Origin: Escherichia coli | GTDB taxonomy: Bacteria > Pseudomonadota > Gammaproteobacteria > Enterobacterales > Enterobacteriaceae | Direction: 5' to 3' (one strand) | Assembly (NCBI RefSeq): GCF_030013595.1 | Contig: NZ_CP122768.1 | Length of the DNA stretch: 64,000 nucleotides | In this document: positions 19,806 to 39,032 of the stretch, piece by piece | How the letters are laid out: every line of letters begins with the position of its first letter | Position numbering within the stretch: position 1 is the stretch's first letter | Notes under the pieces: model-generated | Seen by the model: the letters and a program-made list of their open reading frames with translations, nothing else | The model's database searches: none | Told to the model about the DNA's origin: nothing | Translations under genes and position numbers: made by a program

Positions 19806-21395
19806 ATGAACAATAACGATCTGGTCGCGAAGCTGTGGAAGCTGTGTGACAATCTGCGCGATGGCGGCGTTTCCTATCAAAACTACGTCAATGAACTCGC
19901 CTCGCTGCTGTTTTTGAAAATGTGTAAAGAGACCGGACAGGAAGCGGAGTACCTGCCGGTAGGCTACCGCTGGGATGACCTGAAATCCCGTATCGGTCAG
20001 GAGCAGTTGCAGTTCTACCGTAATCTGCTGGTACATCTGGGCGCCGACAATCAAAAGCTGGTGCAGGCGGTGTTCCAGAACGTCAACACCACCATTACCC
20101 AGCCGAAACAGTTGACCGAACTGGTCGGCAATATGGATTCACTGGACTGGTACAACGGCGCACACGGTAAGTCGCGCGATGACTTCGGCGATATGTACGA
20201 AGGGCTGTTGCAGAAAAACGCCAACGAAACCAAGTCTGGCGCGGGCCAGTACTTCACCCCGCGTCCGCTGATTAAAACCATTATTCATCTGCTGAAACCG
20301 CAGCCGCGTGAAGTGGTGCAGGACCCGGCAGCCGGTACGGCGGGCTTTTTGATTGAAGCCGACCGCTACGTTAAGTCGCAGACCAATGATCTGGACGACC
20401 TTGATGGCGACACGCAGGATTTCCAGATCCACCGCGCGTTTATCGGCCTCGAACTGGTGCCCGGCACCCGTCGTCTGGCGCTGATGAACTGCCTGCTGCA
20501 CGATATTGAAGGCAACCTCGACCACGGCGGCGCAATCCGTCTGGGCAACACCCTGGGCAGCGACGGTGAAAACCTGCCGAAGGCGCATATTGTCGCCACT
20601 AACCCGCCGTTTGGCAGCGCCGCGGGCACCAACATTACCCGCACCTTTGTTCACCCGACCAGCAACAAACAGCTGTGCTTTATGCAGCATATTATCGAAA
20701 CGCTGCATCCCGGCGGTCGTGCGGCGGTAGTGGTGCCAGATAACGTGCTGTTTGAAGGCGGCAAAGGCACCGACATCCGTCGTGACCTGATGGATAAGTG
20801 TCATCTGCATACCATCCTGCGTCTGCCGACCGGTATTTTTTACGCTCAGGGCGTGAAAACTAACGTGCTGTTCTTTACCAAAGGGACGGTGGCGAACCCG
20901 CATCAGGATAAGAACTGCACCGATGATGTGTGGGTGTACGACCTGCGTACCAATATGCCGAGCTTCGGCAAGCGCACGCCGTTTACCGACGAGCATTTGC
21001 AGCCGTTTGAGCGCGTGTATGGCGAAGATCCCCACGGTTTAAGCCCGCGCACTGAAGGTGAATGGAGTTTTAACGCCGAAGAGACGGAAGTTGCCGACAG
21101 CGAAGAGAACAAAAACACCGATCAGCATCTGGCTACCAGCCGCTGGCGCAAGTTCAGCCGCGAGTGGATCCGCACCGCGAAATCCGATTCGCTGGATATC
21201 TCCTGGCTGAAAGATAAAGACAGTATTGATGCCGACAACCTGCCGGAGCCGGATGTATTAGCGGCAGAAGCGATGGGTGAACTGGTGCAGGCGCTGGGCG
21301 AACTGGATGCGCTGATGCGTGAACTGGGGGCGAGCGATGAGGCCGATTTGCAGCGTCAGTTGCTGGAAGAAGCATTTGGTGGGGTGAAGGAATGA
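19806..21395 (+). CDS. hsdM: type I restriction-modification N6-adenine methyltransferase M subunit
   Basis: 529-aa ORF with the NPPF catalytic motif (VATNPPFGS); 4-nt overlap with hsdS. Confidence 0.95.
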   Translation: MNNNDLVAKLWKLCDNLRDGGVSYQNYVNELASLLFLKMCKETGQEAEYLPVGYRWDDLKSRIGQEQLQFYRNLLVHLGADNQKLVQAVFQNVNTTITQPKQLTELVGNMDSLDWYNGAHGKSRDDFGDMYEGLLQKNANETKSGAGQYFTPRPLIKTIIHLLKPQPREVVQDPAAGTAGFLIEADRYVKSQTNDLDDLDGDTQDFQIHRAFIGLELVPGTRRLALMNCLLHDIEGNLDHGGAIRLGNTLGSDGENLPKAHIVATNPPFGSAAGTNITRTFVHPTSNKQLCFMQHIIETLHPGGRAAVVVPDNVLFEGGKGTDIRRDLMDKCHLHTILRLPTGIFYAQGVKTNVLFFTKGTVANPHQDKNCTDDVWVYDLRTNMPSFGKRTPFTDEHLQPFERVYGEDPHGLSPRTEGEWSFNAEETEVADSEENKNTDQHLATSRWRKFSREWIRTAKSDSLDISWLKDKDSIDADNLPEPDVLAAEAMGELVQALGELDALMRELGASDEADLQRQLLEEAFGGVKE

Positions 21396-22760
21396 GTGCG
21401 GAGAAATTGCCGGAGGGGTGGGTTGAGTGTGAATTATCCGAACTCGGTAACATTGTTACAGGGAAAACTCCCAGTACCAAGGAGCCTTCCAATTTTGGAG
21501 GCAGCATTCCTTTCATTAAACCAGGCGATCTTGATCTCGGTGGCTATATCATGAATACCGCCGATACTCTGACGGAGAAAGGGTTATCTCTTGTCCCCAC
21601 TCTTCCTGCCAATTCAGTCGTTGTGACGTGTATTGGAAATTTAGGAAAAGTTGGAATTACCGCTAAAAAATCAGCATCTAATCAACAAATAAATGCATTG
21701 ATCCCGTCAGAAAAGCTAAATGTAAAATTTGTTTATTACCAAATTTTAACATTAAAACCATGGTTAGAGTCTCAATCAGCAGCTACTACAATTGCGATTG
21801 TGAACAAGAGCAAATTTTCTCAGGCACCATTTAAATTCCCGTCGCTTGCCGAACAAAAAATCATCACTGAAAAACTCGATACGCTGCTGGCGCAGGTAGA
21901 CAGCACCAAAGCACGTCTTGAGCAAATCCCACAAATCCTGAATCGTTTTCGTCAGGCTATTCTAGCTAATGCTGTGGAAGGAAAATTGACCGACGAATGG
22001 CGAGCCGGAAAATGTTATATTACAGAAATCAAAAAATATCTGATATTATTCAGAATGCTCAAGTCGGATTAGTTCGTTCAGCTTCAGATCAAAGCGAAAT
22101 ATGCACTCAAAAAATGAGAACGCCTTACATAAAAATGAATAACATTCACAATGTTCTCGGAACAAATTTAGAAAAACTCGCTTATGTCAACTGTGATAGC
22201 TATGAACTGGAAAAATATAGATTAAAAAATGGAGATTGGCTCTTTAATACACGAAATAGTTATGAGTTAGTTGGTAAATCCTGTGTCTGGAATGGATGTA
22301 GCAATGCTGTATATAATAATAATATATTAAGAGTTAGACTAAAAGAAAACTACAATTCTGTTTTTTTAGATTATTGGTTTCACTCGTTCTATGGAGTGAG
22401 CATGCTTAATAGTATTAAATCCGCAACAACAAATGTTGCTGCGATATATCAGAAAGAACTCTTAAGTAAAAGTGTTCCATTCCCCCCCTTCCCGAACAAG
22501 CCGAGATTGTTCGCCGCGTCGAACAACTCTTCGCCTACGCCGACACCATAGAAAAACAGGTCAACAACGCCTTAGCCCGCGTTAACAACCTGACGCAATC
22601 CATCCTGGCAAAAGCGTTCCGTGGTGAACTCACCGCCCAGTGGCGGGCCGAAAACCCGGATTTAATCAGCGGAGAAAACAGCGCCGCCGCGTTGCTGGAA
22701 AAAATCAAAGCTGAACGCGCAGCCAGCGGGGGTAAAAAAGCCTCGCGTAAAAAATCCTGA
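21392..22760 (+). pseudogene. hsdS: type I specificity subunit HsdS, disrupted by two 1-bp homopolymer frameshifts; target-recognition domains differ from EcoKI
   Basis: three consecutive reading-frame pieces (21392..22072, 21997..22551, and a third frame to the TGA at 22758..22760); conserved central (LAEQKIITEKLDTLLAQVDSTKARLEQIPQIL) and C-terminal ([25 protein letters not shown]...) regions are recognisable. Confidence 0.8.
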
Positions 22761-22772
22761 TCATTATTTTCT

Positions 22773-22800
22773 GGCGCACCTTTCCGGTGCGCTTTTTATT
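22773..22800 (+). terminator. rho-independent terminator after hsdS
   Basis: hairpin ggcgcacc-tttcc-ggtgcgc followed by tttttatt. Confidence 0.6.
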
Positions 22801-22893
22801 ATTTTACGCCAATCATAACTCACGCAAATATATTTAAATCATTCCAGAAATTGCCTATTTTATTCTATTTTTAGCTGGACTTTCCCTGTATTT

Positions 22894-22911
22894 ACTGATG
22901 ATATATCCAGG
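22894..22911. promoter_or_regulatory. putative LexA box upstream of symE
   Basis: aCTGatgatatatcCAGg fits CTG-N10-CAG; symE is SOS-regulated. Confidence 0.35.
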
Positions 22912-22914
22912 TAT

Positions 22915-22995
22915 TTAGCGCGGTGCGGATGTGCGCCAACACACCCGCACCGCTCATCACAATCACTATTCCAGGAGAATAGCAGTTATGACTGA
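22915..22995 (-). ncRNA. symR: SymR antisense RNA (type I antitoxin) overlapping the symE 5' UTR and start codon; ends approximate
   Basis: established arrangement for symE; minus-strand TAAAAT -10-like hexamer at 23001..23006 and a hairpin (gcggtgcgg / ccgcaccgc) in the overlapped region. Confidence 0.4.
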
Positions 22996-23329
22996 CACGA
23001 ATTTTATTGCACAACCGTTCGAAGCAGAAGTCTCCCCGGCAAATAACCGTCAATTAACCGTGAGTTATGCGAGCCGCTACCCGGATTACAGCCGTATTCC
23101 CGCCATCACCCTGAAAGGTCAGTGGCTGGAAGCCGCCGGTTTTGCCACCGGCACGGCGGTAGATGTCAAAGTGATGGAAGGCTGTATTGTCCTCACCGCC
23201 CAACCCCCCGCCGCTGAAGAGAGCGAACTGATGCAGTCGCTGCGCCAGGTGTGCAAACTGTCGGCGCGTAAACAAAAGCAGGTGCAGGCGTTTATTGGAG
23301 TGATTGCCGGTAAACAGAAAGTCGCGTAA
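22988..23329 (+). CDS. symE: SOS-induced toxin SymE (AbrB-fold)
   Basis: 113 aa from [15 protein letters not shown] at 22988; position between hsdS and mcrB. Confidence 0.85.
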
Positions 23330-23490
23330 CAGCGTTTACTCCCGGTTAACCACCGGGAGCCTTCCACTGACTCAATAGAAACTTTCCCCCTCAGTAAATA
23401 TTTACCTGCCTGATTGTGCAGTAAAAATCTATTGTTTCAGTACGTTGCGAAAGCGATAATAGAGGCTTAGCAATGAGGAAGGCACATCTT

Positions 23491-24870
23491 ATGGAATCAA
23501 TTCAAGCCTGGATTGAAAAATTTATTGAGCAAGCACAGCAACAAAGTTCACAATCCACTAAAGATTATCCAACGTCTTACCGTAACCTGCGAGTAAAAGT
23601 GAGTTTCGGTTATGGCAATTTTACATCTATTCCCTGGTTTGCATTTCTTGGAGAAGGTCAGGAAGTTTCTAACGGTATATATCCCGTTATTCTCTATTAT
23701 AAAGATTTTGATGAGTTGGTTTTGGCTTATGGTATAAGTGACACGAATAAACCACATGCACAATGGCACTTTTCTTCTGACATACCTAAAACAATCGCAG
23801 AGTATTTCCAGACAACTTCGGGTGTATATCCTAAAAAATACGGACAGTCCTATTACGCCTGTGCCCAAAAAGTCTCACAGGGTATTGATTACACCCGGTT
23901 TGCCTCTATGCTGGACAACATAATCAACGACTATAAATTAATATTTAATTCCGGCGAGAGTGTTATTCCACCTATGTCAAAAACTGAATCATACTGTCTG
24001 GAAGATGCGTTAAATGATTTGTTTATCCCTGAAACCACAATAGAGACGATACTCAAACGATTAACCATCAAAAAAAATATTATCCTCCAGGGGCCGCCCG
24101 GCGTTGGAAAAACCTTTGTTGCACGCCGTCTGGCTTACCTGCTGACAGGAGAGAAGGCTCCGCAACGCGTCAATATGGTTCAGTTCCATCAATCTTATAG
24201 CTATGAGGATTTTATACAGGGCTATCGTCCGAATGGTGTCGGCTTCCGACGTAAAGACGGTATATTTTACAATTTTTGTCAGCAAGCTAAAGAGCAGTCA
24301 GAGAAAAAGTATGTTTTTATTATAGATGAAATCAATCGAGCCAATCTCAGTAAAGTATTTGGCGAAGTGATGATGTTAATGGAACATGATAAACGAGGCG
24401 AAAACTGGTCTGTTCCCTTAACCTACTCCAAAAACGATGAAGAACGATTCTATGTTCCGGAGAATGTTTATATTATCGGTTTAATGAATACTGCCGATCG
24501 CTCTCTGGCCGTTGTTGATTATGCCCTGCGCAGACGATTTTCTTTCATAGATATTGAGCCAGGTTTTGATACGCCACAGTTCCGGAATTTTTTACTGAAT
24601 AAAAAAGCAGAACCTTCATTTGTTGAATCTTTATGCCAAACAATGAACGAGTTAAACCAGGAAATCAGCAAAGAGGCCACTATCCTTGGGAAAGGATTCC
24701 GCATTGGGCATAGTTACTTCTGCTCCGGGTTAGAAGATGGCACCTCTCCGGATACGCAATGGCTTAAGGAAATTGTGATGACGGATATCGCGCCTTTACT
24801 CGAAGAATATTTCTTTGATGACCCCTATAAACAACAGATATGGACCGACAGATTATTAGGTGACTCATAG
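23491..24870 (+). CDS. mcrB: McrB GTPase subunit of the 5-methylcytosine-specific restriction system
   Basis: 459 aa from MESIQAW at 23491; AAA+ GTPase motifs (LQGPPGVGKT). Confidence 0.9.
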   Translation: MESIQAWIEKFIEQAQQQSSQSTKDYPTSYRNLRVKVSFGYGNFTSIPWFAFLGEGQEVSNGIYPVILYYKDFDELVLAYGISDTNKPHAQWHFSSDIPKTIAEYFQTTSGVYPKKYGQSYYACAQKVSQGIDYTRFASMLDNIINDYKLIFNSGESVIPPMSKTESYCLEDALNDLFIPETTIETILKRLTIKKNIILQGPPGVGKTFVARRLAYLLTGEKAPQRVNMVQFHQSYSYEDFIQGYRPNGVGFRRKDGIFYNFCQQAKEQSEKKYVFIIDEINRANLSKVFGEVMMLMEHDKRGENWSVPLTYSKNDEERFYVPENVYIIGLMNTADRSLAVVDYALRRRFSFIDIEPGFDTPQFRNFLLNKKAEPSFVESLCQTMNELNQEISKEATILGKGFRIGHSYFCSGLEDGTSPDTQWLKEIVMTDIAPLLEEYFFDDPYKQQIWTDRLLGDS

Positions 24871-25916
24871 TGGAACAGCCCGTGATACCTGTCCGTAATA
24901 TCTATTACATGCTTACCTATGCATGGGGTTATTTACAGGAAATTAAGCAGGCAAACCTTGAAGCCATACCCGGTAACAATCTTCTTGATATCCTGGGGTA
25001 TGTATTAAATAAAGGGGTTTTACAGCTTTCACTCCGAGGGCTTGAGCTTGATTACAATCCTCATACCGGGATCATTCCTGGCATCAAAGGGCGAATAGAG
25101 TTTGCTAAAACAATACGCGGCTTCCATCTTAATCATGGGAAAACCGTCAGTACTTTTGATATGCTTAATGAAGACACGCTGGCTAACCGAATTATAAAAA
25201 GCACATTAGCCATGTTAATTAAGCATGAAAAATTAAATTCAACCATCAGAGATGAAGCTCGTTCACTTTATAGAAAATTACCGGGCATTAGCACTCTTCA
25301 TTTAACTCCGCAGCATTTCAGCTATCTGAACGGCGGAAAAAATACGCGTTATTATAAATTCGTTATCAGTGTCTGCAAATTCATCGTCAATAATTCTATT
25401 CCAGGTCAAAACAAAGGACATTATCGTTTCTATGATTTTGAAAGAAACGAAAAAGAGATGTCATTACTTTATCAAAAGTTTCTTTTTGAATTTTGCCGCC
25501 GTGAATTAACGTCTGCAAACACAACCCGCTCTTATTTAAAATGGAATGCATCAAGCATATCGGATCAGTCACTTAATTTGTTACCTCGAATGGAAACGGA
25601 CATCACCATTCGCTCATCAGAGAAAATACTTATCGTAGACGCAAAATACTATAAAAGCATTTTTTCACGACGAATGGGCTCAGAAAAATTTCATTCTCAA
25701 AATCTTTATCAACTGATGAATTACTTATGGTCGTTAAAGCCTGAAAATGGCGAAAACATAGGGGGGTTATTAATATACCCCCACGTAGACACCGCAGTGA
25801 AACATCGTTATAAAATTAATGGCTTCGATATTGGCTTGTGTACCATCAATTTAGGTCAGGAATGGCCGTGTATACATCAAGAATTACTCGACATTTTCGA
25901 TGAATATCTCAAATAA
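24870..25916 (+). CDS. mcrC: McrC nuclease subunit
   Basis: 348-aa ORF, GTG start overlapping the mcrB stop by 1 nt. Confidence 0.9.
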   Translation: MEQPVIPVRNIYYMLTYAWGYLQEIKQANLEAIPGNNLLDILGYVLNKGVLQLSLRGLELDYNPHTGIIPGIKGRIEFAKTIRGFHLNHGKTVSTFDMLNEDTLANRIIKSTLAMLIKHEKLNSTIRDEARSLYRKLPGISTLHLTPQHFSYLNGGKNTRYYKFVISVCKFIVNNSIPGQNKGHYRFYDFERNEKEMSLLYQKFLFEFCRRELTSANTTRSYLKWNASSISDQSLNLLPRMETDITIRSSEKILIVDAKYYKSIFSRRMGSEKFHSQNLYQLMNYLWSLKPENGENIGGLLIYPHVDTAVKHRYKINGFDIGLCTINLGQEWPCIHQELLDIFDEYLK

Positions 25917-25938
25917 GCGGTAAGTTTTATAGAAAATA

Positions 25939-25965
25939 CCGCTCCCGACACGACGTCGGGAGCGG
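25939..25965. terminator. bidirectional stem-loop between convergent mcrC and the large helicase gene
   Basis: perfect 11-bp inverted repeat ccgctcccgac / gtcgggagcgg. Confidence 0.55.
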
Positions 25966-25972
25966 CACATCA

Positions 25973-28900
25973 TCAGGAGGCGAGCACCTCCACCAGCACA
26001 TCCGTTGCCCAGCTCTCTTCACTGTTGACCACATTCCCTTCCTGACAAGCTTGATCCATTTTGACTAACTGGAAAGAAACGTCATCGCGGAAGTCAAAGT
26101 AATGCCATTGCGATGCAAAGTTGATACGCCAGTAGCCCATCCCCTGATCGAAGCGGATCTTCAATACCTGACCATCCTCAAAAGTCACCGTCAGTTTACG
26201 ATGGTGAGGGATATCGCGCGGCGAGTCGAACACCGCCAGTTCTACCGGCCTGCCCAGCGCAGCTGCAAACCACTGATCAGCGAAATCCTGAAAATCCGCT
26301 ATGCTCATCCAGTCATGAAAAGGCCGGTTACCGGGGCGATCTTTATCTTTAAACAGCGTATCCAGCGTCACTTCAGCGCCATCGGTCAGCTTTGTTTTTA
26401 GCGGTCTCAGAATTGATCCCAACAACGCCAGCGCAACCGGGTTTTGCAGATAGCGATCGGTATAGTGAACGCCGGTAATTCGCGTATTTTTCATCAGTGA
26501 CTGCGCTTCTTCATGGTCGTTAAACAGCACGTCCCAGAAGCGTTGCCCAAACTGCGACAACGGTCCATTCAACTGTTTGTGGATCTGGATGTCTTTGACC
26601 CGCTCGACAGCGTTGGCGGCTTTAGCTGGCAGAATAAACTCGCTCAGTTCTACCGTTTTATAACCGAGGCTACGCACTACCAGTTCGTCATTCAGGTGCC
26701 ACTCCGGCCCCGGAATCGTTGCCTGCTGACTGCGAGAGGCCAGCGTCATCACGCGATCGGCAAAGGTAACCTGGGCAACAATCGGTAATTGCAGATCCTG
26801 TTCAACATGGCACAGTCGCACACCCAGCGCAGTAAATTGCGATAGTTCATGCAACAGGTCCGGATCATCCACTCCCGCAGGAATAACAAGATCGACCTCG
26901 ACGTTGTCTTTTAGCCGATAGCTCTGAATAGCCGCGCGGAACTGACGGGCGTATAAATCCCACTCATTGGGCGCGCCAGTCATCCACAGGGTGAGCTTTT
27001 CAGCGCCTTCGTTAATCGCCCGGCGAATCGTATCGCCAATAGCGCCAGGGCAGTAGCGGGCATCCGGCAGCGAGAATGTCTCTTCATCCGGTAAACCGAT
27101 GTAATACGTGAAGTCATCGCCAAGCCAGGCCAGCGCCGCTTTGCGATCCAGCAAATCATGATCGTGGCGAGTCTGGGAATCAAGCAGGCATTCACTGCAT
27201 GCAGTATCACAATGGCGGCAGCCTAACTGTTTCACCATTCCCTGCAAAATAGCTTCAATGTGTACCGGTGCGCTGGAGGCAAAACCTGCACCACCGCTGA
27301 TCACATCATAAAGCTGTACGGCTAATACCGATTGCCCATCCTCCAGTCTGACCGGACGTACAGAATAGCCGAGTTCTGCGGTGGAGATACCCAGAACGCC
27401 CGCCAGCGCCTGACGCAGAGCAACCGCCAGAGTCATGGCGACAATCCGCCCCTCTTCTGTGTTATCTGGCAGATACTCGCCATTTTGTGGTTTGCGCAGA
27501 ACCATTTCAAAGACATCGGTGCGCGCCAGTGCGCCCAGGGTGACTTTCTTCACGAGTGCCGTCGAACCTGGGCAAATCAGACGATGATTCTGGCTGTCGC
27601 GGTCCGCTTTACCCGGACGCGGTGGATAGTGAGCTTCCATACTTTTCGGCGCATCATTTTCATTCAGCATCGACTCCGCACGGCCACAGCTCAGACACAA
27701 TGCATAACCGTGTCCACCTTCCCCCAGACTTTGCTGGAAAACATGCCCATCAGCCCCAGAAGCCATATAACCCATTAGCGGGTTAGGCAACGGTACGGGC
27801 TCTGCTTTAACAAAGACCCACGCGGGGACAACCGGGACGAATTTCATGGTTTCAATATTGTTCGTTACCGGAGCATGTGCATCGGTAACAAACCCGGCAG
27901 GCTGCAGCACCTGACGGCGATTATCCAGGATGATTTTTTCGCCGCAGGCGCTGTTGGAGCAAAAGAGCATCCCGGAACTGCTCATCCCCTCTTCATAGCC
28001 AATGGTCCCGCATTTATGACAGCGCCAGGCGCAATCCAGACGCTGGGCTTCATTGGTATCAGCATTAATGTTGTGCCAGTGCAGTGAGACACCGGCAGAG
28101 CGGAAGACACGGCCATCAAGAATGATCTCTGCTCCCGGTGCATATTCACGAATGGCAACACCGAGGTTACGGGAAGGTAATCCTTTATAACGGGAGACGT
28201 TATCTTCACGGTCCTTTTTATCACGACTTTTCTGCGATTTTTCGCGGATATAATCTTCCATCGTGAAGTTATCAAACGTCACTACATCTGTCGGGAAACC
28301 GTATCCCGGCAGGAAGGTTCTGGCAGCCAGATCGCGCAGCAGATACTCGCCACAGTGCCGTTTCTTCTCCAGCTCTATGCGCTTACGATAAGGCGTTTGC
28401 GGCTGCGACTCACGCTCCTGGGTCACGAGATCGCGATAAACGGAGAGCCACCGCTGTTGCAGGAAGGTGATCGCGTTGATTGTTTTGTCCCGCAGATGTT
28501 CGGCTCTTGCGCCATGCAATGCCGTACCTTTCACCAGCCGTTCCAGCGCCGTGTCGATATCAAGAACAGAGCGTTCCAGCCAGACTTTGAAGCGTTCGCA
28601 TTTTGACTCCCCGTCATCTTCACCGAAAAACCAGAGGCTATCGAGGCTGGTTTTCTCTTTATCGGTTTCGCCAATAACGTTACATAAAAAGTCGGACAGT
28701 AATAATGCATTGACGTGACGTTGCACCAGTCGGGCGGAGTTCATCGCGACCATGGGTGCCGGGATCATGGTTTCAAACGGCCAGAGTGGGTTGGCAAAAA
28801 CCTGTTGGTCGTGTGGGTTACCCTTACATAGGGTGTAAGAGATCGCGCGCGATTCTTTACTACGCCCGGCTCGCCCGGCGCGCTGTAAATAGTTGGCCGG

Positions 28901-31900
28901 ATGTGGCGGTACGTTGTTCATTACCACCGCAGTAATGCCCCCGATATCAACCCCCATTTCCATGGTGGTGGAACAGTTGAGAACATTTAGTTGCCCATTC
29001 TTGAACATCTTTTCATAGCTTTGCAGACGTTCTGACGACTGCTGGGCAGAGTGCTCGGCAGTGCGATAGTAGAAACCGCCTTCCACGACACGATCGTTGA
29101 TGTCTGTCCAGACGTTTTCCGACCGCAATTGTGCGATCAGCGGATCATTGCTGACCCAGTCGCGTGCTTTTGCCAGACCCTCTGCGTAGTCTTCCTGTGA
29201 ACGATCCAGCTTCCAGATTTCCGGCATGGTGACTTTCTGCGCGACAAAAGTGTCATATTGCGCCTGGGTAAGATGCTCGAACGAAATATGGGTAGGCAGA
29301 TAAGGGGTTAAGCCTTTAAAAGCCGTATCCAGGATTTTATTGGTTACCGGGCAAATCCAGGCATCCGTGATTAAAGAAAAAGTCATATGCTCTTTCGGTA
29401 AATAAAAACGGTTGCCATCGGGTTTCAGTACTGCAAGCGGTCCGGTAAGTTGGGCCCATGCTTCTTTCAGCCATGTATTGATAATATCAATAGTCGCCGT
29501 ATTGACGGTTTTGAATCCAGCCCCCAGCATCAGTAACTTCGCTAAACGATGGGATACGTTGCCATTACGAATTTGAGGCCAGCGTCTGTTCTGATTATCT
29601 TCAGGATCTTTTGATTCCGGGTTACGGACGAATTTTGATGAAAAACGGCTACCAATCCAGTTTTTCAGCTCATCATCCAGCTGTGTGAAGTTGCTTTCGC
29701 GAACATAAAGATCCAACGTAACCTTGAGAAAATCGCGCCAGTCATCCAGCGTTAATCCTTTTTCCTGCCAGTGCAAGGGGCTCTTATGTATTTTCTCCAG
29801 CCCCTGGTAACCAACCTGAACCAGCCCCTGTGTTTCCAGGCTGTTAGTCCGTTTAGGGCGACGCATGAATTCCCGGAACAACAACATTTCCGAAAGCTTT
29901 AGTGGCCCGCCGTTTTTATTAAACACTTCAGGCTGCAAATAGTGGTTATATTTCAGTACCGGGCCACGGATATCGGCTTTATCTTTAAGCTCGTTAACCA
30001 TTTCTGTCCAGGTGCGGGATACCAGGGTAGTTGCTGCTTTTCCACCGGTTGCAGCCTGATAAGCCTGTTCAAGCTGTTCAGCCTGCGCTTGTGACAATTT
30101 CGCCTGGTCTGGCATTCCCCAGCTTCGATATTCTTCTGCCTGCTCACGGGCTTGCTTCGCCCTGGCCGCTAATTTTTCCAGATCGGCATTGGCATTCGGC
30201 GCCGTGGACGTTTGCGTCCGTTGATGCCAGCTCAGAATTTCGACTACGCTTCCGCGTAAGAGACTGCGTTCTGCTTCTTGCTGCATACGCACCGCCATTC
30301 GAGCTGTACCTTGTCGACTGTCCGTAAAGGTAATGAGTCGACGTCCTCGCCCTGGCAACGAATCTGGTCCGACGCCCTCTTTGCCTTCATCACTGGTAAA
30401 GTCCTGACAATACTCAAGAACGGTAGGCACGATGTTAGTAACGTAAAATGGCCCACCTAATAATGCACGCCGGAAGGGTTGTTTCCCACTCATGCCTCGG
30501 TAGCCACAGCCGCTGGCGCTACAAACCTTTTTATCATTAATAATCAGCGGAATGCTGTCATTATTAATAACGCCAATACGGCGCGTCTGACGGTCGAGGC
30601 GTTGTAGGGTATAGCCTGTCTCGCTGGTCTCTCCTGCGGCAATAATCAACGGAGGCAGGAAACCGTTCTCTTTTTCGACTTTTTCCTCTGTAGTGTCATG
30701 TTCAACAGGTACTTCATCCTGCAAGGAGAACTCATCGCCACCTTTATTTTCCCATTGGACAAGTTTGCCCTTTTTGTCCTGCGCCAGAAGATGAGGCTCA
30801 TTACAATCATTACAGAACGCCACTTCGTAGACAGGGCTTCCACAGTCGCAATTTTGTCGCTGGTTCACATACACATAGCCAAAGGGCCAGCCTTTTTCGA
30901 GCGGTGTACCGTGCTTTAATCTGCAATCTTTATCAACACAAGCCCATATTCCTTGGGTATTACGCTGGAAGATATGCGCCCTGACTTTAAGAAATGCGGG
31001 ATCCTTTGCATTAGGTTGAGTCCCTGAACAGACATCGATCCAACGCAGTACTTCCTGCTGGCTGTAATGCTGTTTTGTCAGCGCATTTAACCGCTGCGTC
31101 ATCTCATCCAGTTTCATTGGATTAGGTTGGCTAACCAACATTTCACGTATGTAACGCGCTTCGGGGGAGTGCGTAAGCGCATAAAAGCGCTCAGGACTTA
31201 TCCCTTTAATTTTATTATCATTTTTATCTTTTAGATCCAGATCAGGTATTTGCTCTATTTCGTCTAACGGAACAGAAACGTTTTTGGATGGTTCCAGTTC
31301 AGGAATCACCCGACTTCCGTCCAGAACATCGATGCGCTCCTGCGGGATACCGGATAATTCAGAGAGAAATTTTTTCAGCTGTTTTTCGGCGTCGCTGCCG
31401 GCAATGGTCGCAGAGGTCGCTACAAAGCGCACATCATCTGGCGTCACGCCAAACGCTGTCATCACACGACGCAGCTGGAGTGCCAGTTCAGCGGCCTGCG
31501 ACCCGACATAGGTATGCGCTTCATCCAGTACAATCCAGCGTAGTGATTTTTGTGCTTTGGATTGCTGGATAATCGGGGCGTCGACCTGGCGAACCATCAT
31601 ATATTCCAGCATCGTGCCGTTGGTCACCAGAATCGGGGCAGGCTCCAGACGCATCTTTTCACGGGATAAGACTTCATTTGGTCTATTATCCTGCACTGTT
31701 TTCATTTTTGCGTGGAGCTCTTCTGTATTTCCGTTATACAAGCAGTAGCGGATCCCAGTACCAAAACCACGCGTCCAGGCATCCAGACGCTCGCGCTGTG
31801 AATTAATCAAGGCGTTCAATGGATAGAGAAAAAGGGCTCGGACACCAACCAACGGATTGTTGCCATTTTCATGCAGTTCCCGGTAAAGATCTTCCAGCAC

Positions 31901-32314
31901 CGGAACCATAAAACATTCCGTTTTACCTGAACCCGTACCACTGGTTACCACCACTGAATGTTTCTTTTCCAGCAAAGCTTTCCAACTGGCTAACTGGTGT
32001 GTAAAAGGCTTCCAGTCAGCACCAAATCGGTACCGGCCATTACTCTGATTATCCAGTGAATCAACCACTGCTTTGCTCAACAATGCGTTGCCTTCCGTCA
32101 GACTGCGCATCGTGTGGTTTGACTCCTTCCAGCCAAACATTTGCTGGAATACCGGAGAAGCAAGGAATGAGCCCGGTTTCCCACAATCAGCCCCCATTTG
32201 TTGCGCGAGATGTTCACGCAGCTGCGGGTTGGTTACGCCCATGATACTGAGCGTTGCTTCAGTTGAACGAGACAACGATTGTTCAATAAGTGACGAAAAA
32301 TAGCGTGTAGTCAT
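25973..32314 (-). CDS. 2113-aa DEAD/DEAH-box helicase with Cys-rich zinc-ribbon-like modules (DruE-like defence helicase; inferred)
   Basis: Walker A SGTGSGKT (31919..31945), DEAH (31514..31525), SAT motif, helicase motif V MEMGVDIG and [10 protein letters not shown] (28862..28885), Cys clusters [45 protein letters not shown] before the ATG. Confidence 0.85.
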
Positions 32315-32326
32315 CCTTATTCCTTT

Positions 32327-35300
32327 TTATTTTTTAGCAACATAACGCAACAGGCTGCACTGAAAGATGGTCTTAAACCAGCGGGAATCGAAGTCCCTGA
32401 CTTGCCTCAGGAAAAATACGGCACCGGGTTTACGGTCAAATACAGCTTCAAAAGAAGTATTTCCGCTTGCCACAGCTGCAGCGAAGACGGGTAACCAGGC
32501 CACGGAATAGCGGTGATTTGCGTCAGGATTAATACCAATCACTGGATTTTTTTGTGACATCATCCATTTATACAGACGCTTGCAGCCATATTCAGGCCAG
32601 CGAGCTTCACTGTGCTCACGTAAAAGCTCCTGATACCACCCGTGGACACAAGATTCAGGAATAGACGGAGGGAGATATCCGTTACTTAACCATTTCTCAA
32701 TTTCATCGGCATATGTCGGGAACACGAGCCCCAGCCGTTGAAACATATTAGTAACCAGTAATTTCTGGGTTTCCTCCGGTGCACCTTTTTGGCTCAGGAA
32801 CAATTTGAAACGCTCAGATGCAGCTTTGATCTCAAAGATGGGGAAAAACTCCCATAGAATAGGGAACTCATTCTCAATACGACTCAGGTACTCTGCTGAC
32901 ATTTCAAATTTGAAGAGCGACATCGCCAATGCCTGCGGATGCTGCACTAGTGCACGCCATACTTCAAAGGTTGCCAGCGGTAAATAACCAAATTGATCGT
33001 ACAGGCTACGCATAAATTGCCAGCCGGAATGGGCAGGATCGTTAGCCATCTGTCCGAGAACCAGTGTGATGGTATTAACTTCTGCCTGTGGATTAAAAAG
33101 CTGGGTCGCTTTCTGCAATGAGCGGATGTTGCTTTCTTCTACCGGTAACGAAGATTCGCCACGAATGAAGCAGGGGCGAAAAGCCATCTCCTCACCCGGT
33201 TTAGGAACAACCAACCATGGCCCATTTTTGTTAACGATTGAGCTCAACTCATATTCACCGACAGGCACTCCCTCGCTCATTCTTGATGCTAAGGGGATGG
33301 ATTTCCTCTCGGGTTCACTTAACAGCATGATAACGGGGGAAGGAATCTGCCCAGCACGATGGTTCACTGACTGGCTGAGTAATAGTTCTTTTTCATAATC
33401 ATAGCGCAGGCTGTATTTATAGCGACGAATTTGCCAGGCCATGACCACACCTGCCCCCGTAATACGCATCTCAACAACCTGATCAATACCTGCCTCAAGT
33501 GAAATCAGGTTCTCAATATGTTCGCGCAGACTATAGAGATTCAATTCAACAGGACGATCGCTCTACGCCGTATAACACCATTCATGCCATGCCTGTAATC
33601 CACTAACGGAGCGCAAATACAACTGCAATGTATATTTTGTCGGCTCACCATTTCTGGAGAACAGAAACGCTCTGGAACCCAGCAGATCATGCAGCGTAAT
33701 GTTTTTATCCAGAGGACGTCCGTTTACATCAAGAGCGAGACAGCCTTTAGCGGGAAAAGGTAACTCAATGTCGATGGGGTCAGCCGCCAAATTAGGCAGA
33801 ACTTGTAATGTAATAAATGCCGGAGGTACCCCTTCCGCTTTAAGTTGTATCTCTGTTCGCCCCTCAGTACGCTTACGTGTAGCCTCCAATGTTTTATCTT
33901 TAAGTTTTGCTACACAAGGATGCTGTGTGGTGATTAAGATAGTGCCTTCATTTGCGTGCATTCCACCTTTTATCTCAATACTGAAATCAGCAGGCAAGAT
34001 ACCGATTTTGCGACGCAAGAGCGTTTCATTGTTACTATTACGGATAGAAAGATATTGAGCCCCCAGCATCTCTTGTATATGACATTGCTCAATTGAAATT
34101 CCGCTCAGGTAACGCGTTACATCAATGCTTTGAATATCCGGTAGTGTAGAAATGACTTTTGGTACACCAATAAATGTTTCATCTGGATGACAAACCCAGC
34201 TTGCACGCTTTCCATTTAGAGCAAACCTTCCGATGCTGATTTGTTCTCTTCCGGTGCGAATCCGATAAGTTTCATTTGCTGTAACTGTAACGTCCTGACA
34301 TCCCTTCACAGGTAGTGCTTTTAGTCCTAATACGTTTACTGCGCTCGATTGGCCATCAAAACCAGCAACATTGCTATTATCCCGAGGGAGTACAATCAGA
34401 ACATCGCTGCTTCGCACACTGCAAGAAGCCTGTCCCTGTAACAGCCATTGATCTGCATCAACGATGAAGGTTAACGGCACCTCACCAATGGCAATTTCAC
34501 TGTCATCAAGTTTAATGCTCCCAACAATCATCCCTCCAGCACGAGCCACTAATGACAAACCAGCCGATGGATTTTGCCTGACAAATCTCACTTCGCTTTT
34601 ACGTAATCGAACTGTTGCCTGTCTGTTTTCCAGGGAAGCATAGGCTGGCCCAAGGCCAGAGACTTCCTCACCATCTTCACAAATGGCAAGTTCAAAGCGC
34701 GTAGTTGACGGCTCGCTTGTTACAGGAAAGGAAACTTCGTCCGGAAGAGATACTATCACCCTAAGCTCATCTGGATGCTTTTCTGACCAATAGAATTGGC
34801 AACGCGTACTCTTATTTTTTTGTAGTCGAGGCTTAGCCTCTACAGAGGCTGCGCATAGCAGTCCATTCAAAAAATGCGTTCCTGTTTCATCATCTAACGG
34901 TATTGGAAACTCGCTTCGCCAGGTAGGGTGAACCTTCTCAAGCTGTTGTACTGGTTCTTTGTGATTTATTAGGTTGTGAGTAAGTACTAAGGAATTGAGG
35001 TTATCAGCCATATGACTGATAAGTTCTACAGAGGTATCTTCGCTAAAAACAGTTGGCAGCGCTGATTTTTCTATGACAGCTCTTGCCAGCGAAAGGGCAG
35101 AAAAACCTGACTGCTTTGCTTGCTCATATTGTCCAAGGATCCTGGAGAAAACAGCCAGAAAGCGACTGTCTGATTCTTTGAGTAGCCGGAAAGGTAAACC
35201 ACCTTCACTGAATAATGTTCCGAGAAAATTGCGTCGTTCAGATTCATAAAATCGAATTGGGCGCAGCCAGTAATCTTCCATCCCTTTCGGTACGATAGTA

Positions 35301-35617
35301 CCAAGCTCTGTGGCGGTGAATGAAATCCCTATTTTTTTATATATAGGGTCCCACGTCCATCCGCATTGCCGTTCATAATCCCTGCGGTACCACTCAGAGC
35401 AAAAAAGAACAAAACAGGCAGCAAAGTCCCTATTACATATATTAGATTGTGATTGACCGACCGCACGGAGTAGCTGCGTTAATTGGGTATATTCATCATT
35501 GGTTGCATGATATTCATAAAGAGGACGGCCATCCGGTTGTCTCAACCCTCTAAGATTCACAAAGTTACTTAGCCAGGAAGTACATTTTACCCATGAAATG
35601 TATTCTGATTGACCCAA
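32327..35617 (-). pseudogene. ~1096-aa protein of unknown function (DruH-like by position) interrupted by one in-frame TAG at 33563..33565
   Basis: ORFs 33563..35617 (684 aa) and 32327..33544 (405 aa) are in the same frame, separated only by TAG plus six sense codons; no Shine-Dalgarno precedes the downstream TTG; 12-nt gap with RBS to the helicase gene. Confidence 0.75.
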
Positions 35618-36115
35618 AGCAAGCTCCTTAGAGATAAAAGATACAAAAACAAAACCCTACAATACTTCTAATTTGAAAGAAAACTTTTCAAAATATCGTA
35701 TAATTAATCAGGCGGCAACAACTAATTTTTCAGGTCGGTACTATAAATTAATTTTAGATAAAAATGATATCAACTATCTATTAATCACAACTCATTTATC
35801 ACCTGGTTTTATAATTTCAAATGAAAATAAATCTCAAACAATCAAAAAGTATGCAGTAGCTAACATTTAACTTTCCAGGATATAAAACAATTAGAGAAAC
35901 TGCACAATAGCGAATAATGAGAGTTGTAAAGTCAGTCAAAAAACACAAGTAATCAGTGTGCGTTTTTTGACCGTTATCGACATGAGTTTAAAGAGTTTAG
36001 TGAAGAAGATATTCCTGTACACTCCATACCTATTGATGAATTGTCTCGGGAAAATTTTTATAACTTAATTTAAAAACATAAAAACGTTTTATTATATATA
36101 AATCTATAACCCCCA

Positions 36116-38111: not shown

Positions 38112-39032
38112 TTAGTACTCGAGCCATGAATCGTGCTCACGGTCAGGCAGGGGCTGCACTAATGCCTGTATTTGCTCTGCCGAAAGTCCGGTAATCTTTT
38201 GTATCCATTCAGGATCTACCCCATTCTGCAAAAACAATCGAAGAATGCGCTGTTCCCCTTTTATACATCCATCATTATGAATTCGCTCTGCAATTGTCAT
38301 TATTCGCTCCCTGTGGTGTGGCATTCGCCTGGTAAGTTCGCTGATAAACTTCTTAAAACGCGCTTCATCGCCAGTCAGTAAAATGTAATTTAACAGCGCG
38401 GTTATCTGGCTGTCATTAGCGCACCCTGTAACCAATAATACTGCCAGTTGATCAATAAGCCCCATTAGATCGCGCTGGCGAATATGCTTTTGGATCAACT
38501 CCAACAGGGCGACTCTGCGGTGCTGCACAATCTCGTCGTCTGGCACGACAGTGACATCCACCAGCGGGAACGCTGCAGTATAAAGCTTCCGTGCAGTAGT
38601 CGGGTCGGCAAATTCGTCCAGCCAGCACAAAGACCAGGGATAAGGACTACGGCTACCGTGATAAAACAGCATCGGGATGACCAGCGGTAGCGGCCGGCGT
38701 TTATCATGCTCGATATGGCGCTGCATCACCGCCATGGAATATCGCATCAGGCGAAAGGCCATATGGATATCCTCGCGGCTCTGATGTTCAATCACTACGT
38801 AAATATAACCATCACCTTCACGGGTCTTTACCGACCACAGAATATCGGAGTGTAGCGCCCGCAATTTTTCATCGACGAAGCTGGCGGATTCCAGTTTTAA
38901 GCTGTCGAGATCGCACAGTTCACGTAAATCTTTGGGTAAGTGGATCTCCATAAAATCCCGCGCGGTGTCAGGGTGCGTGAGAAAGGACTTAAATAATGCG
39001 TCATGCGGCGTGCTGGTCGTGAAGTTTGTCAT
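38112..39032 (-). CDS. rpnD: Rpn-family recombination-promoting nuclease (PD-(D/E)xK, transposase_31-like), apparently intact
   Basis: 306-aa uninterrupted ORF ([17 protein letters not shown]...); the K-12 counterpart yjiP/yjiQ is split, from memory. Confidence 0.7.

Follow-up and report, generated by a model that had tools for sequence, protein, structure and literature searches.

Druantia type III-A is represented in Escherichia coli by the OI-172 lineage (strains ATCC 8739, EDL933, ECOR19 and NCTC12923; PDB 9tu7 and 9tud), in which druH and druE, in this order and closely spaced, form a two-gene operon on a mobile island, with Zorya II and ARMADA II on either side. A type III Druantia from Pseudomonas aeruginosa also consists of DruH and DruE, both of which are required, and acts in a non-abortive manner (Loeff, Chanez and Jinek, 10.64898/2026.05.13.724313). 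The fork-processing model which we use for an intact system comes from that work. Structures (cryo-EM) and biochemistry of Druantia III are the subject of at least five papers from 2025-2026, so that the view taken in the sequence-only reading, according to which the mechanism still had to be elucidated, is out of date. The 2026 preprints disagree on DruH: 3'-5' exonuclease activity, ATP-gated binding of ssDNA and sensing of phage proteins have each been ascribed to it, the last together with dimer-dependent nuclease activity. They also disagree on DruE, which is described either as a nuclease or as a protein without nuclease activity and with dispensable PLD domains.

As judged from these homologues, an intact Druantia III would target DNA and confer immunity in a direct, non-abortive manner. 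DruE would be a dimeric, autoinhibited SF2 helicase of the YprA/MrfA type, which would load on exposed ssDNA, 3' tails or fork junctions of phage replication or recombination intermediates and would translocate in 3'-to-5' direction by means of its RecA core, zinc modules and MZB domain. DruH, in which probably six Ig-like domains lie between helical N- and C-terminal domains, would process or bind the single-stranded 3' end, and engagement of DruE by its C-terminal domain would license unwinding and degradation of the phage DNA. Both proteins would be required. All mechanistic data come from systems with ~33% (DruE) and ~21% (DruH) sequence identity to the one described here, or from Pseudomonas and Mycolicibacterium, and a literature search retrieved no paper in which the lineage from the immigration control region is tested directly.

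The window, a stretch of 64,000 nucleotides of E. coli DNA, carries a two-gene operon of Druantia type III (DruH plus DruE) on the minus strand between mcrC and yjiS. This site is the E. coli restriction island (immigration control region), the usual place for Druantia type III. The annotated features are as follows.

25936..25968, minus strand: terminator-like hairpin with 15 pairs (9 of them G-C), then a T-run; consensus scan, a pattern match only
25973..32314, minus strand: druE (yjiV-type), intact ORF of 2113 aa with ATG start
25976..27091, minus strand: C-terminal region of DruE, aa about 1742-2113; homologue of the PLD1/PLD2-like region on which the definition of subtype III-A rests
27185..27427, minus strand: MZB domain (MrfA Zn-binding, former DUF1998) of DruE, aa about 1630-1710; Pfam PF09369, E 7.9e-9
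28859..29065, minus strand: RecA2 (Helicase_C) of DruE, aa about 1084-1152; Pfam Helicase_C, E 9.8e-12
31385..31999, minus strand: RecA1 (DEAD domain) of DruE, aa 106-310; Pfam DEAD, E 1.7e-22
32315..32326, minus strand: druH-druE spacer of 12 nt, AAAGGAATAAGG, carrying the druE ribosome-binding site, read from the sequence
32327..35617, minus strand: full frame of druH (yjiT), 1097 codons including TAA, with a single internal stop
32327..33562, minus strand: 3' part of druH, codons 686-1096 plus TAA, frame still open
33563..33565, minus strand: in-frame amber TAG, druH codon 685, read from the sequence
33566..35617, minus strand: 5' part of druH, codons 1-684, 684 aa, TTG start
35751..35780, minus strand: weak sigma-70-like promoter candidate with 9 of 12 consensus matches in the AT-rich yjiS-druH spacer

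The TTG start of druH is preceded at 6 nt by AAGGAG. At the junction of the genes, the druH stop codon TAA (32327-32329) is followed by the 12-nt spacer and by the druE ATG at 32314. The downstream piece of druH was called as an ORF of 405 aa (32327..33544, minus strand), and the upstream piece, in the same frame, as one of 684 aa (33563..35617, minus strand). On one side, the operon has mcrB (23473..24870, plus strand) and mcrC (24870..25916, plus strand) as neighbours, which are convergent with druE, and the terminator-like hairpin between druE and mcrC begins 5 nt past the druE stop codon. The other flank consists of yjiS and yjiR. The genes hsdR, hsdM, hsdS and mrr are located further upstream. 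As the yjiS-druH spacer (GC 0.37) contains fewer sigma-70-like sites than shuffled sequence, the evidence for a promoter is weak. The coordinates given in the sequence-only reading all agree with the ORF listing and the sequence, and so do its minus-strand operon between mcrC and yjiS, supported by the ORF and neighbour calls, and its 12-nt gap with a ribosome-binding site in front of a helicase of 2113 aa. Its protein of ~1096 aa stands as a frame of 1096 codons; it is not an open ORF because of the internal TAG at codon 685.

The operon is a Druantia type III homologue in a pseudogenised copy. DruE matches the PADLOC model DruE3 (PDLC00037) with 2693 bits over residues 1-2109 of 2113, and DruE3 is the only one of the PADLOC DruE models to span the protein end to end, while those for types I, II and IV reach 360-543 bits and cover the C-terminal half only. 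The PADLOC model DruH3 (PDLC00049) is matched by both druH products, with 1107 bits at profile positions 1-684 of 1100 for the 5' product and with 696 bits at positions 691-1099 for the 3' product. Both parts also score above the cut-off of NCBIfam NF038336 (YjiT_fam; 754 and 485 bits, respectively), and the Pfam domains YjiT_N and YjiT_2nd are found on a public protein identical to the 5' product. Among PDB entries, 9tu7 is matched by DruE with 1025 bits over residues 5-2081 and 9tud by DruH with 80.8 bits. With an ORF of 2113 aa and HMM E-values of 0, a chance match can be discounted. The 1096-codon frame of a YjiT-family DruH lies directly upstream of druE on the same strand, the arrangement by which type III, with a DruH of about 1100 aa, is recognised. 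The PADLOC and NCBIfam models thus bear out what had been proposed from the layout of the two genes, and a search with DruE and DUF1998 models, named beforehand as a possible refutation, yielded matches to DruE3 and MZB. The suspicion that the exact variant might be undescribed did not hold, since models exist in PADLOC, NCBIfam and Pfam (YjiT_N, YjiT_2nd, YjiV_N). A link between DruH and the YjiT family from the immigration control region had already been made (PMC13192584), and a protein identical to DruE is RefSeq WP_064225811.1, annotated in NZ_CM149870.1.

DISARM (DrmA/DrmB) and MrfA/YprA belong to the same helicase family, with an SF2 core and an MZB/DUF1998 zinc module. In DISARM, helicase and DUF1998 are distributed over two proteins and are accompanied by a methyltransferase and DrmC, whereas the partner of MrfA in repair is the exonuclease MrfB and that of DruE is DruH. 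DISARM was rejected as an assignment: a single protein combines helicase and MZB, a methyltransferase is missing from the operon, and the PADLOC models for DrmA reach only ~33-35 bits. An OI-172-type island (Zorya II - Druantia III - ARMADA II) was rejected as well, the neighbours being mcrC and yjiS/yjiR. ARMADA-type helicase and methyltransferase genes occur beside the OI-172-type lineage in comparison locus L004.

DruE is a YprA/MrfA-like SF2 helicase, related to the repair helicase YprA/MrfA (PDB 6znp). It is colinear with OI-172 DruE over its full length (RecA1, Zn modules, RecA2, OB/Zn, MZB and the putatively PLD-like C-terminal region), with which it shares the catalytic motifs of the helicase and the cysteines of MZB. 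Motif I (GSGKT, 128-132) and motif II (DEAH, 264-267) align with G118/K121 and D251/E252 of the OI-172-type protein, mutation of which abolishes defence. In the RecA2 segment, which is 60% identical to that of the studied DruE, the RAGR motif is at 1145-1148, with R1148 and R1151 aligned to R1135 and R1138. Cysteines 1699, 1702, 1706 and 1709 align with the essential cysteines C1681, C1683, C1687 and C1690 of the studied DruE, and the residues by which the latter contacts ssDNA are mostly kept (N167, R218, N232, Y238, R242, R667, R672, R1382). As all helicase and zinc motifs are present, DruE looks competent. Its C-terminal ~370 aa are colinear with residues 1724-2104 of OI-172-type DruE (26.5% identity), with DRYL, LTVTF-x-DG and YWR as common motifs. 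Two PLD-like domains at the C terminus of DruE distinguish subtype III-A from III-B. The PLD-like fold of this region is taken from the literature on homologues; a Pfam search of DruE gave no PLD match, and the classical HxK(x)4D motif is absent according to a motif and alignment check.

For DruH, the structure of the repaired 1096-aa protein was predicted with AF2 (pLDDT 83), as the sequence-only reading had suggested for this protein. The model has two helical domains, one N-terminal (1-267) and one C-terminal (about 834-1096), which enclose a beta-rich part with Ig-like repeats (272 to about 820). It has this layout in common with OI-172 DruH, and the layout agrees with the published cryo-EM descriptions. 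Ig-repeat ectodomains were the only matches of the model in Foldseek. The first Ig-like domains are encoded by the 5' part of druH along with the helical N-terminal domain, the last ones by the 3' part along with the helical C-terminal domain. When the family profile was compared to the studied DruH by hhalign, the two aligned with 99.8% probability over columns 15-946, and codon 685 was placed near residue 689 of the studied protein. The residues at the far C-terminal end of the studied DruH gave no significant mapping onto the DruH described here, and the active-site residues R22, K28, E64 and E220 of P. aeruginosa DruH could not be placed on any aligned DruH.

The lengths of the proteins differ from those in the OI-172 lineage (1096 vs 1119 aa for DruH, 2113 vs 2104 aa for DruE), and the identity is only 33% over the full length for DruE and about 21% for DruH, where BLASTP detects just the N-terminal 245 aa. 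Several residues for C-terminal domain assembly and of the dimer domain in the OI-172 lineage are not conserved, and the stop codon in druH is a further difference. Much closer are Salmonella Typhi STY4851 and other enterobacterial YjiT-family proteins (NF038336; YjiT_N, YjiT_2nd), which represent the same DruH sub-lineage. Over its full length, DruH shares 60-77% identity with the proteins of Salmonella, Klebsiella, Serratia, Pantoea and Cronobacter; for those of Pseudomonas, Azotobacter and Aeromonas, the values are 41-48%. These relatives are intact, with 1094-1117 aa, whereas druH is interrupted in the window. No paper with a functional test of these YjiT-family proteins was found in the literature search.

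DruH is thus not encoded by a single intact reading frame. The amber codon results from a TTG (Leu)-to-TAG change, a single base at 33564 relative to the nearest genome. The phrase "TAG repaired" in the sequence-only reading already hinted at this stop. It was treated there as a detail to be repaired; it is rather the main feature of this druH copy and probably inactivates it. The exact 81 bp around the stop occur in none of the 234 complete E. coli genomes carrying this stretch. The window also differs from the nearest genome by two indels of 1 base each, located in homopolymer runs of hsdS, as is typical of long-read errors, and the changed base is 4 nt away from a GATC site, so that one might think of a sequencing or assembly error in an otherwise intact and functional Druantia III. 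We consider this highly improbable, as the TAG recurs in independent assemblies from several projects. The exact 684-aa product is found on at least 24 public contigs, and the stop was confirmed in the five of these loci that were inspected. Carriers include SRR30668523 and five further samples, SRR30668489, ERR4421134, GCA_021649405.1 and GCA_008326365.1; they differ from the window by 0-1 mismatch over 5-8 kb, and independent carriers share the gene calls of 684, 405 and 2113 aa. The TAG therefore is a real clonal allele.

In published homologues, defence is abolished by deletion of druH, of its N-terminal domain or of the C-terminal remainder, and the C-terminal domain mediates contact with DruE. 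The ssDNA/ATP site of the studied DruH (Y733, R1031, H1062, R1064, K1067) lies completely downstream of the break at codon 685. The TAG would end DruH within the fifth Ig-like domain. As DruH would then lack both the ssDNA/ATP pocket and the C-terminal domain that contacts DruE, the system is most likely inactive despite an intact druE, as far as can be judged from these homologues. Taken as a whole, we read the locus, with a probability of about 0.8, as a Druantia III of the immigration-control-region lineage with a broken druH that is likely non-functional. It is unlikely that the operon still works, be it by amber readthrough or by a restart at the TTG at 33544, the first possible one at 6 codons past the TAG, with reassembly of a split DruH. 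The frame past the TAG is wholly open, so that low-level readthrough or reinitiation may occur; its 411 codons are free of further lesions and retain the family-consensus residue at position 1070. According to the AF2 model, codon 685 falls between predicted beta-strands (677-684 and 690-693) and not within a helix, druE is wholly intact, and the allele has been maintained in at least 24 contigs, a persistence in the clone that also fits a tolerated residual function. However, no Shine-Dalgarno sequence is seen before the TTG, the break lies inside an Ig-like domain in the region which forms the ssDNA/ATP pocket of the studied DruH, and a recent origin, with 0-1 mismatch among carriers, explains the absence of decay equally well. 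Amber suppressors are rarely carried by wild E. coli.

Slightly less likely still is that DruE has been kept for a role independent of DruH, either in repair like MrfA/YprA or by feeding DNA to McrBC or the type I enzyme. The intact motifs and the kinship with the repair helicase would be in line with this, as would the observation that OI-172 DruE can add to Zorya synergy by engagement of DNA rather than by cleavage. However, DruE without DruH gave no defence in every published test, and the nonsense codon 1.2 kb upstream may reduce druE expression by polarity. In addition, it is often druE that is lost at this locus: locus H9 has a stop, H8 a frameshift and K-12 a deletion. Such losses speak against a conserved role of DruE on its own. 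We thus prefer to regard this Druantia III copy as an ordinary, catalogued system that is probably dead.

Decay is common at the mcrC-yjiS Druantia locus. Of the 9.7 kb, E. coli K-12 MG1655 keeps only 47%, with annotations as pseudogene yjiV and as yjiT, in line with the sequence-only reading, according to which K-12 has only remnants of these genes. Slot and lineage are the same, with about 97% nucleotide identity where sequence is present. In K-12, druH lacks its 3' part and druE its 5' part owing to an internal deletion, while the copy in the window has its full length and one nonsense codon; the K-12 pseudogenes yjiT/yjiV have their counterpart of intact length in this copy. Within a spread sample of 11 near-complete loci, seven are interrupted, be it by an IS3 element, by a frameshift or by a stop, and deletion remnants of the K-12 type occur in about 440 genomes.

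The operon lies on the minus strand of the window and comprises the following features, as taken from the ORF listing and from domain matches:

24870..25916, plus strand: mcrC, which bounds the operon opposite the yjiS/yjiR side
25936..25968: strong hairpin followed by a T-run, beginning 5 nt past the druE stop codon
25973..32314, minus strand: druE, an ORF of 2113 aa with an ATG start
DruE residues 106-310: Pfam DEAD
DruE residues about 1084-1152: Pfam Helicase_C
DruE residues about 1630-1710: Pfam MZB (MrfA Zn-binding, formerly DUF1998)
32327..33544, minus strand: 3' ORF of druH, 405 aa, in the same frame as the 684-aa ORF
33563..35617, minus strand: 5' ORF of druH, 684 aa, with a TTG start

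The ORF listing and a reading of the strand confirmed the coordinates and the operon description of the sequence-only reading. The 1096-aa protein that it had described corresponds to a single frame (32327..35617) which indeed has 1096 codons but is not open, its sole interruption being a TAG at codon 685 (33563-33565). This frame starts with TTG, with AAGGAG six bases upstream, and closes on TAA; twelve bases (AAAGGAATAAGG) separate the TAA from the ATG of druE. The spacer upstream of druH is AT-rich, and its sole promoter-like candidate is considered weak because shuffled sequence contains more sigma-70-like matches than the region does.

DruE matches the PADLOC model DruE3 (PDLC00037) end to end with 2693 bits; its type I, II and IV counterparts reach 360-543 bits. 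The two halves of druH match DruH3 (PDLC00049) at profile positions 1-684 and 691-1099 of 1100, and both are above the curated cut-off of NCBIfam NF038336 ('YjiT_fam, STY4851/ECs_5259 family'). Pfam YjiT_N, YjiT_2nd and YjiV_N are assigned on the public gene calls of identical proteins. On these profile matches, we assign the operon to Druantia type III. The sequence-only reading had made the same assignment and let it hinge on matches to DruE or DUF1998 models; such matches were found, to DruE3 and to MZB. It had also called the mechanism unknown, which is outdated as of 2026 with an active structural study and 2026 preprints, and the variant possibly undescribed, while PADLOC, NCBIfam and Pfam models dedicated to the lineage already exist. 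The high interest attached to the locus had rested on these two points, neither of which holds as of 2026. The locus is a known, catalogued defence system at a known chromosomal site with a pseudogenised allele, and is new neither in kind nor as a variant. It carries little weight as a discovery, being a common system of a catalogued lineage whose mechanism is under structural study.

Among complete genomes, NZ_CM149870.1 (of pig origin, UK) is nearest to the window, with three base differences in the 9728-bp operon. One of these is the stop, as druH codon 685 is TTG (Leu) in that genome and TAG in the window, a difference of one base. An exact match to the 81 bp around the TAG was found in none of the 234 complete genomes which carry that stretch. 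The exact 684-aa protein occurs on at least 24 public contigs from several projects, and on each of them the gene calls are 684, 405 and 2113 aa. The carrier loci that were fetched have the TAG in five of five cases and deviate from the window by at most one mismatch in 5-8 kb. Judged from these alleles, the druH stop codon is real, recent and clonal. That the TAG is a sequencing error might be suspected because the window also differs from the nearest genome by two homopolymer indels in hsdS, but the identical allele is found in independent assemblies, so that an assembly error is ruled out and we give this explanation practically no chance.

All three differences from NZ_CM149870.1 (at 32410, 33564 and 35545) are in druH and all are protein-changing (V25L, L685*, M1070L). 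The window matches the family consensus at DruH residues 25 and 1070, and thus it is the nearest genome that carries two derived substitutions at conserved sites. Small as the numbers are, the confinement of all three differences to druH fits the fast DruH evolution described in PMC13192584.

In an AlphaFold2 model of the repaired DruH (pLDDT 83), the N-terminal domain (NTD, 1-267) and the C-terminal domain (CTD, about 834-1096) are helical, and the part between them (272 to about 820) is beta-rich and Ig-like. When compared by Foldseek to the PDB (to 2026-04-08, without DruH entries), the model retrieved only Ig-repeat ectodomains. This supports the predicted fold class of DruH, and published cryo-EM work on DruH likewise reports Ig-repeat ectodomains as fold matches. 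In the model, codon 685 comes just after the strand at 677-684; when aligned to the studied DruH, it falls near residue 689, which would place the break inside Ig5. According to the model, the 684-aa product (76 kDa) would keep the NTD and some four and a half of the Ig-like domains, and would be devoid of the rest of Ig5, of Ig6 and of the entire CTD. Comparison of the CTD to the studied DruH by BLASTP gave only non-significant alignments (E 0.013-0.6); in one of these, R1036 stands opposite the base-stacking R1031, a pairing on which we do not rely. The residues R22, K28, E64 and E220 of the active site of Pseudomonas DruH are not present at those numbers in any member of the DruH alignment.

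DruE looks competent from its motifs. Motif I (GSGKT, 128-132), motif II (DEAH, 264-267) and RAGR (1145-1148) are present, and the MZB cysteines 1699, 1702, 1706 and 1709 as well as most of the ssDNA-contacting residues are conserved with the solved DruE. Conservation with the studied DruE is highest in the RecA domains (48% and 60% identity) and lowest in the dimerisation domain (22%) and the PLD-like region at the C-terminus (26.5%). For a PLD domain in DruE there is no Pfam match even at E <= 10, nor was a classical HKD motif found, and membership in subtype III-A would thus rest on the colinear homology of the C-terminal 370 residues. The lone C-terminal HxK (H2038-R-K2040) is not conserved; the studied DruE reads H-G-R-E there.

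The effect of the stop has to be judged from the mechanism of the homologues, which would apply here by analogy. The 2026 preprints agree that Druantia III defence is direct and not abortive, that both druH and druE are needed, and that DruE is a dimeric, regulated 3'-to-5' helicase which engages ssDNA-containing substrates via its RecA core, Zn modules and MZB domain. Some groups report that DruE has nuclease activity; another group did not reproduce this and, in addition, describes the PLD domains as dispensable. DruH is described by one group as a 3'-5' exonuclease with a putative active site in the NTD and a CTD that binds DruE, by another as an ATP-gated ssDNA binder with a pocket between Ig5 and CTD (pocket residues R1031, H1062, R1064 and K1067), and by a third as a sensor of phage proteins that has dimer-dependent nuclease activity. 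In the ATP-gated-binder study, defence was abolished by loss of the DruH NTD or of the remainder. Under each published model, the C-terminal part of DruH would be required, and this makes the window copy most likely inactive. Defence might persist if the TAG is read through or if DruH works as a split protein, which we regard as improbable; that DruE has a role which is independent of DruH seems very improbable to us. Our main reading, with a probability of about 0.8, is a Druantia III system with druH broken by the TAG and a copy that is most likely inactive.

In the E. coli structural and functional work that we found, the system came from ATCC 8739, EDL933, ECOR19 or NCTC12923 throughout. 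In this studied system, which is encoded on the OI-172 island with Zorya II and ARMADA II on either side, DruH is 1119 aa long and DruE 2104 aa. A plasmid copy (L004, on CP057056.1) is of the OI-172 type and has every residue named in the papers at the identical number. The window DruE is colinear with the OI-172-type DruE over residues 5-2086 with only 33% identity. For DruH, BLASTP detects just the first about 245 residues (27% identity), while a profile of 48 family members aligns with OI-172-type DruH over columns 15-946 (99.8% probability, 21% identity). A PDB sequence search, with 1025 bits for DruE (9tu7) and 80.8 bits for DruH (9tud), agrees with the profile comparison. Identities of 33% and about 21% place the window operon in a second Druantia III lineage, which appears deeply diverged from the studied one. 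STY4851 from Salmonella Typhi belongs to the same lineage as the window (63% identity), and relatives are spread across Enterobacterales and Pseudomonas.

In E. coli, the window lineage is found in the immigration control region, and DruH has already been assigned to the YjiT family of that region (PMC13192584). At least 80% of the window operon is present in 231 of 5426 complete E. coli genomes, and operon remnants occur in about 440, including K-12, where yjiT and yjiV cover 47% of the operon; 674 complete genomes match in total. The OI-172 lineage is found in 506 of the 5426. Druantia III is among the commonest defence systems of E. coli. We rejected an origin of the window lineage from a plasmid or mobile element, as it is chromosomal in all 684 E. 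coli places found; the single close match in the plasmid collection (H46) is a 4.9-Mb record and evidently a chromosome. OI-172-type Druantia III, with an ARMADA-type helicase and a methyltransferase as neighbours, is also found on plasmids of E. coli and Klebsiella, both conjugative IncY plasmids and others (CP057056.1, IncY, and 17 plasmid places in the search). The OI-172 lineage is thus mobile, whereas the window lineage was found on chromosomes only.

We sampled 11 near-complete loci, chosen for spread from the genome-search matches, a small set in which assembly errors may underlie some of the frameshifts. The operon is intact in four (H1, H3, H4, H7) and has IS3-family insertions in another four (H2, H5, H6, H11). 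Two have druE lesions, a frameshift in H8 (2021CK-00607) and an internal stop in H9 (APEC E16002), and one has a druH frameshift (H10, B1.H1.18). The disrupted set includes the loci L003, L007 and L008. Together with the about 440 K-12-type deletions, the disrupted loci suggest that the immigration-control-region lineage is often lost. The protein cluster P0117 (921 aa, 229 members), with YjiT_N/YjiT_2nd and an MZB domain, looks like an in-frame DruH-DruE fusion resulting from the K-12-type deletion.

Inactivations thus include the K-12 deletion, IS3 insertions, frameshifts and stop codons, among them the clonal amber allele. As the lineage is so diverged, chromosomal and without Zorya II/ARMADA II, it is possible that it represents a functionally distinct stand-alone variant, with another DruH trigger or phage range and no partner systems, and that its repeated inactivation in E. 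coli reflects a fitness cost (e.g. self-damage during DNA stress) and not neutral decay. We consider this speculative and rather unlikely. Toxicity that depends on mitomycin C, which has been reported for the OI-172 type, is a candidate for such a cost. The remaining interest is modest: the lineage is strongly diverged from the studied one and often decayed, and we found no paper in the searchable literature that directly tested it. HMM-based defence finders would score the locus as a complete Druantia III, because both DruH fragments match the DruH model, though the copy is probably dead; counts of defence repertoires which ignore internal stops overstate immunity. An inexpensive system for comparison would be an allele that is either repaired or intact by nature (the nearest genome, HCP5S3_I2, is one base away at the stop), and such an allele could help to settle the conflicting DruH models.

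In the neighbourhood, hsdS of the type I restriction system (21392-22760, plus strand) is split into the out-of-frame ORFs 21392..22072 and 21997..22551. Two runs are each one base shorter in the window than in the nearest genome, one of A at about 22030 and one of C at about 22481, and hsdS is likewise annotated as two partial pseudogenes in that genome. Genuine frameshifts, phase variation or homopolymer assembly errors could each account for these indels. In the yjiS-yjiR interval, the nearest genomes HCP5S3_I2 and LCP30S3_I5 have an IS3-family element (22317-23545 of the NZ_CM149870.1 locus) that is absent from the window (about 36272). A gene for an Rpn-family recombination-promoting nuclease is found nearby (38112..39032, minus strand). 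A 1746-aa inverse autotransporter adhesin (49194-54434, plus strand) resembles IatC in its N-terminal part, with 1128 bits, a score that does not reach the equivalog cut-off. An intact 656-aa pentapeptide-repeat protein with weak similarity to PipB2/HetL is encoded at 44669-46639 (plus strand), and its counterpart in the nearest genome is annotated as a truncated 'type III effector' pseudogene beside an IS1.
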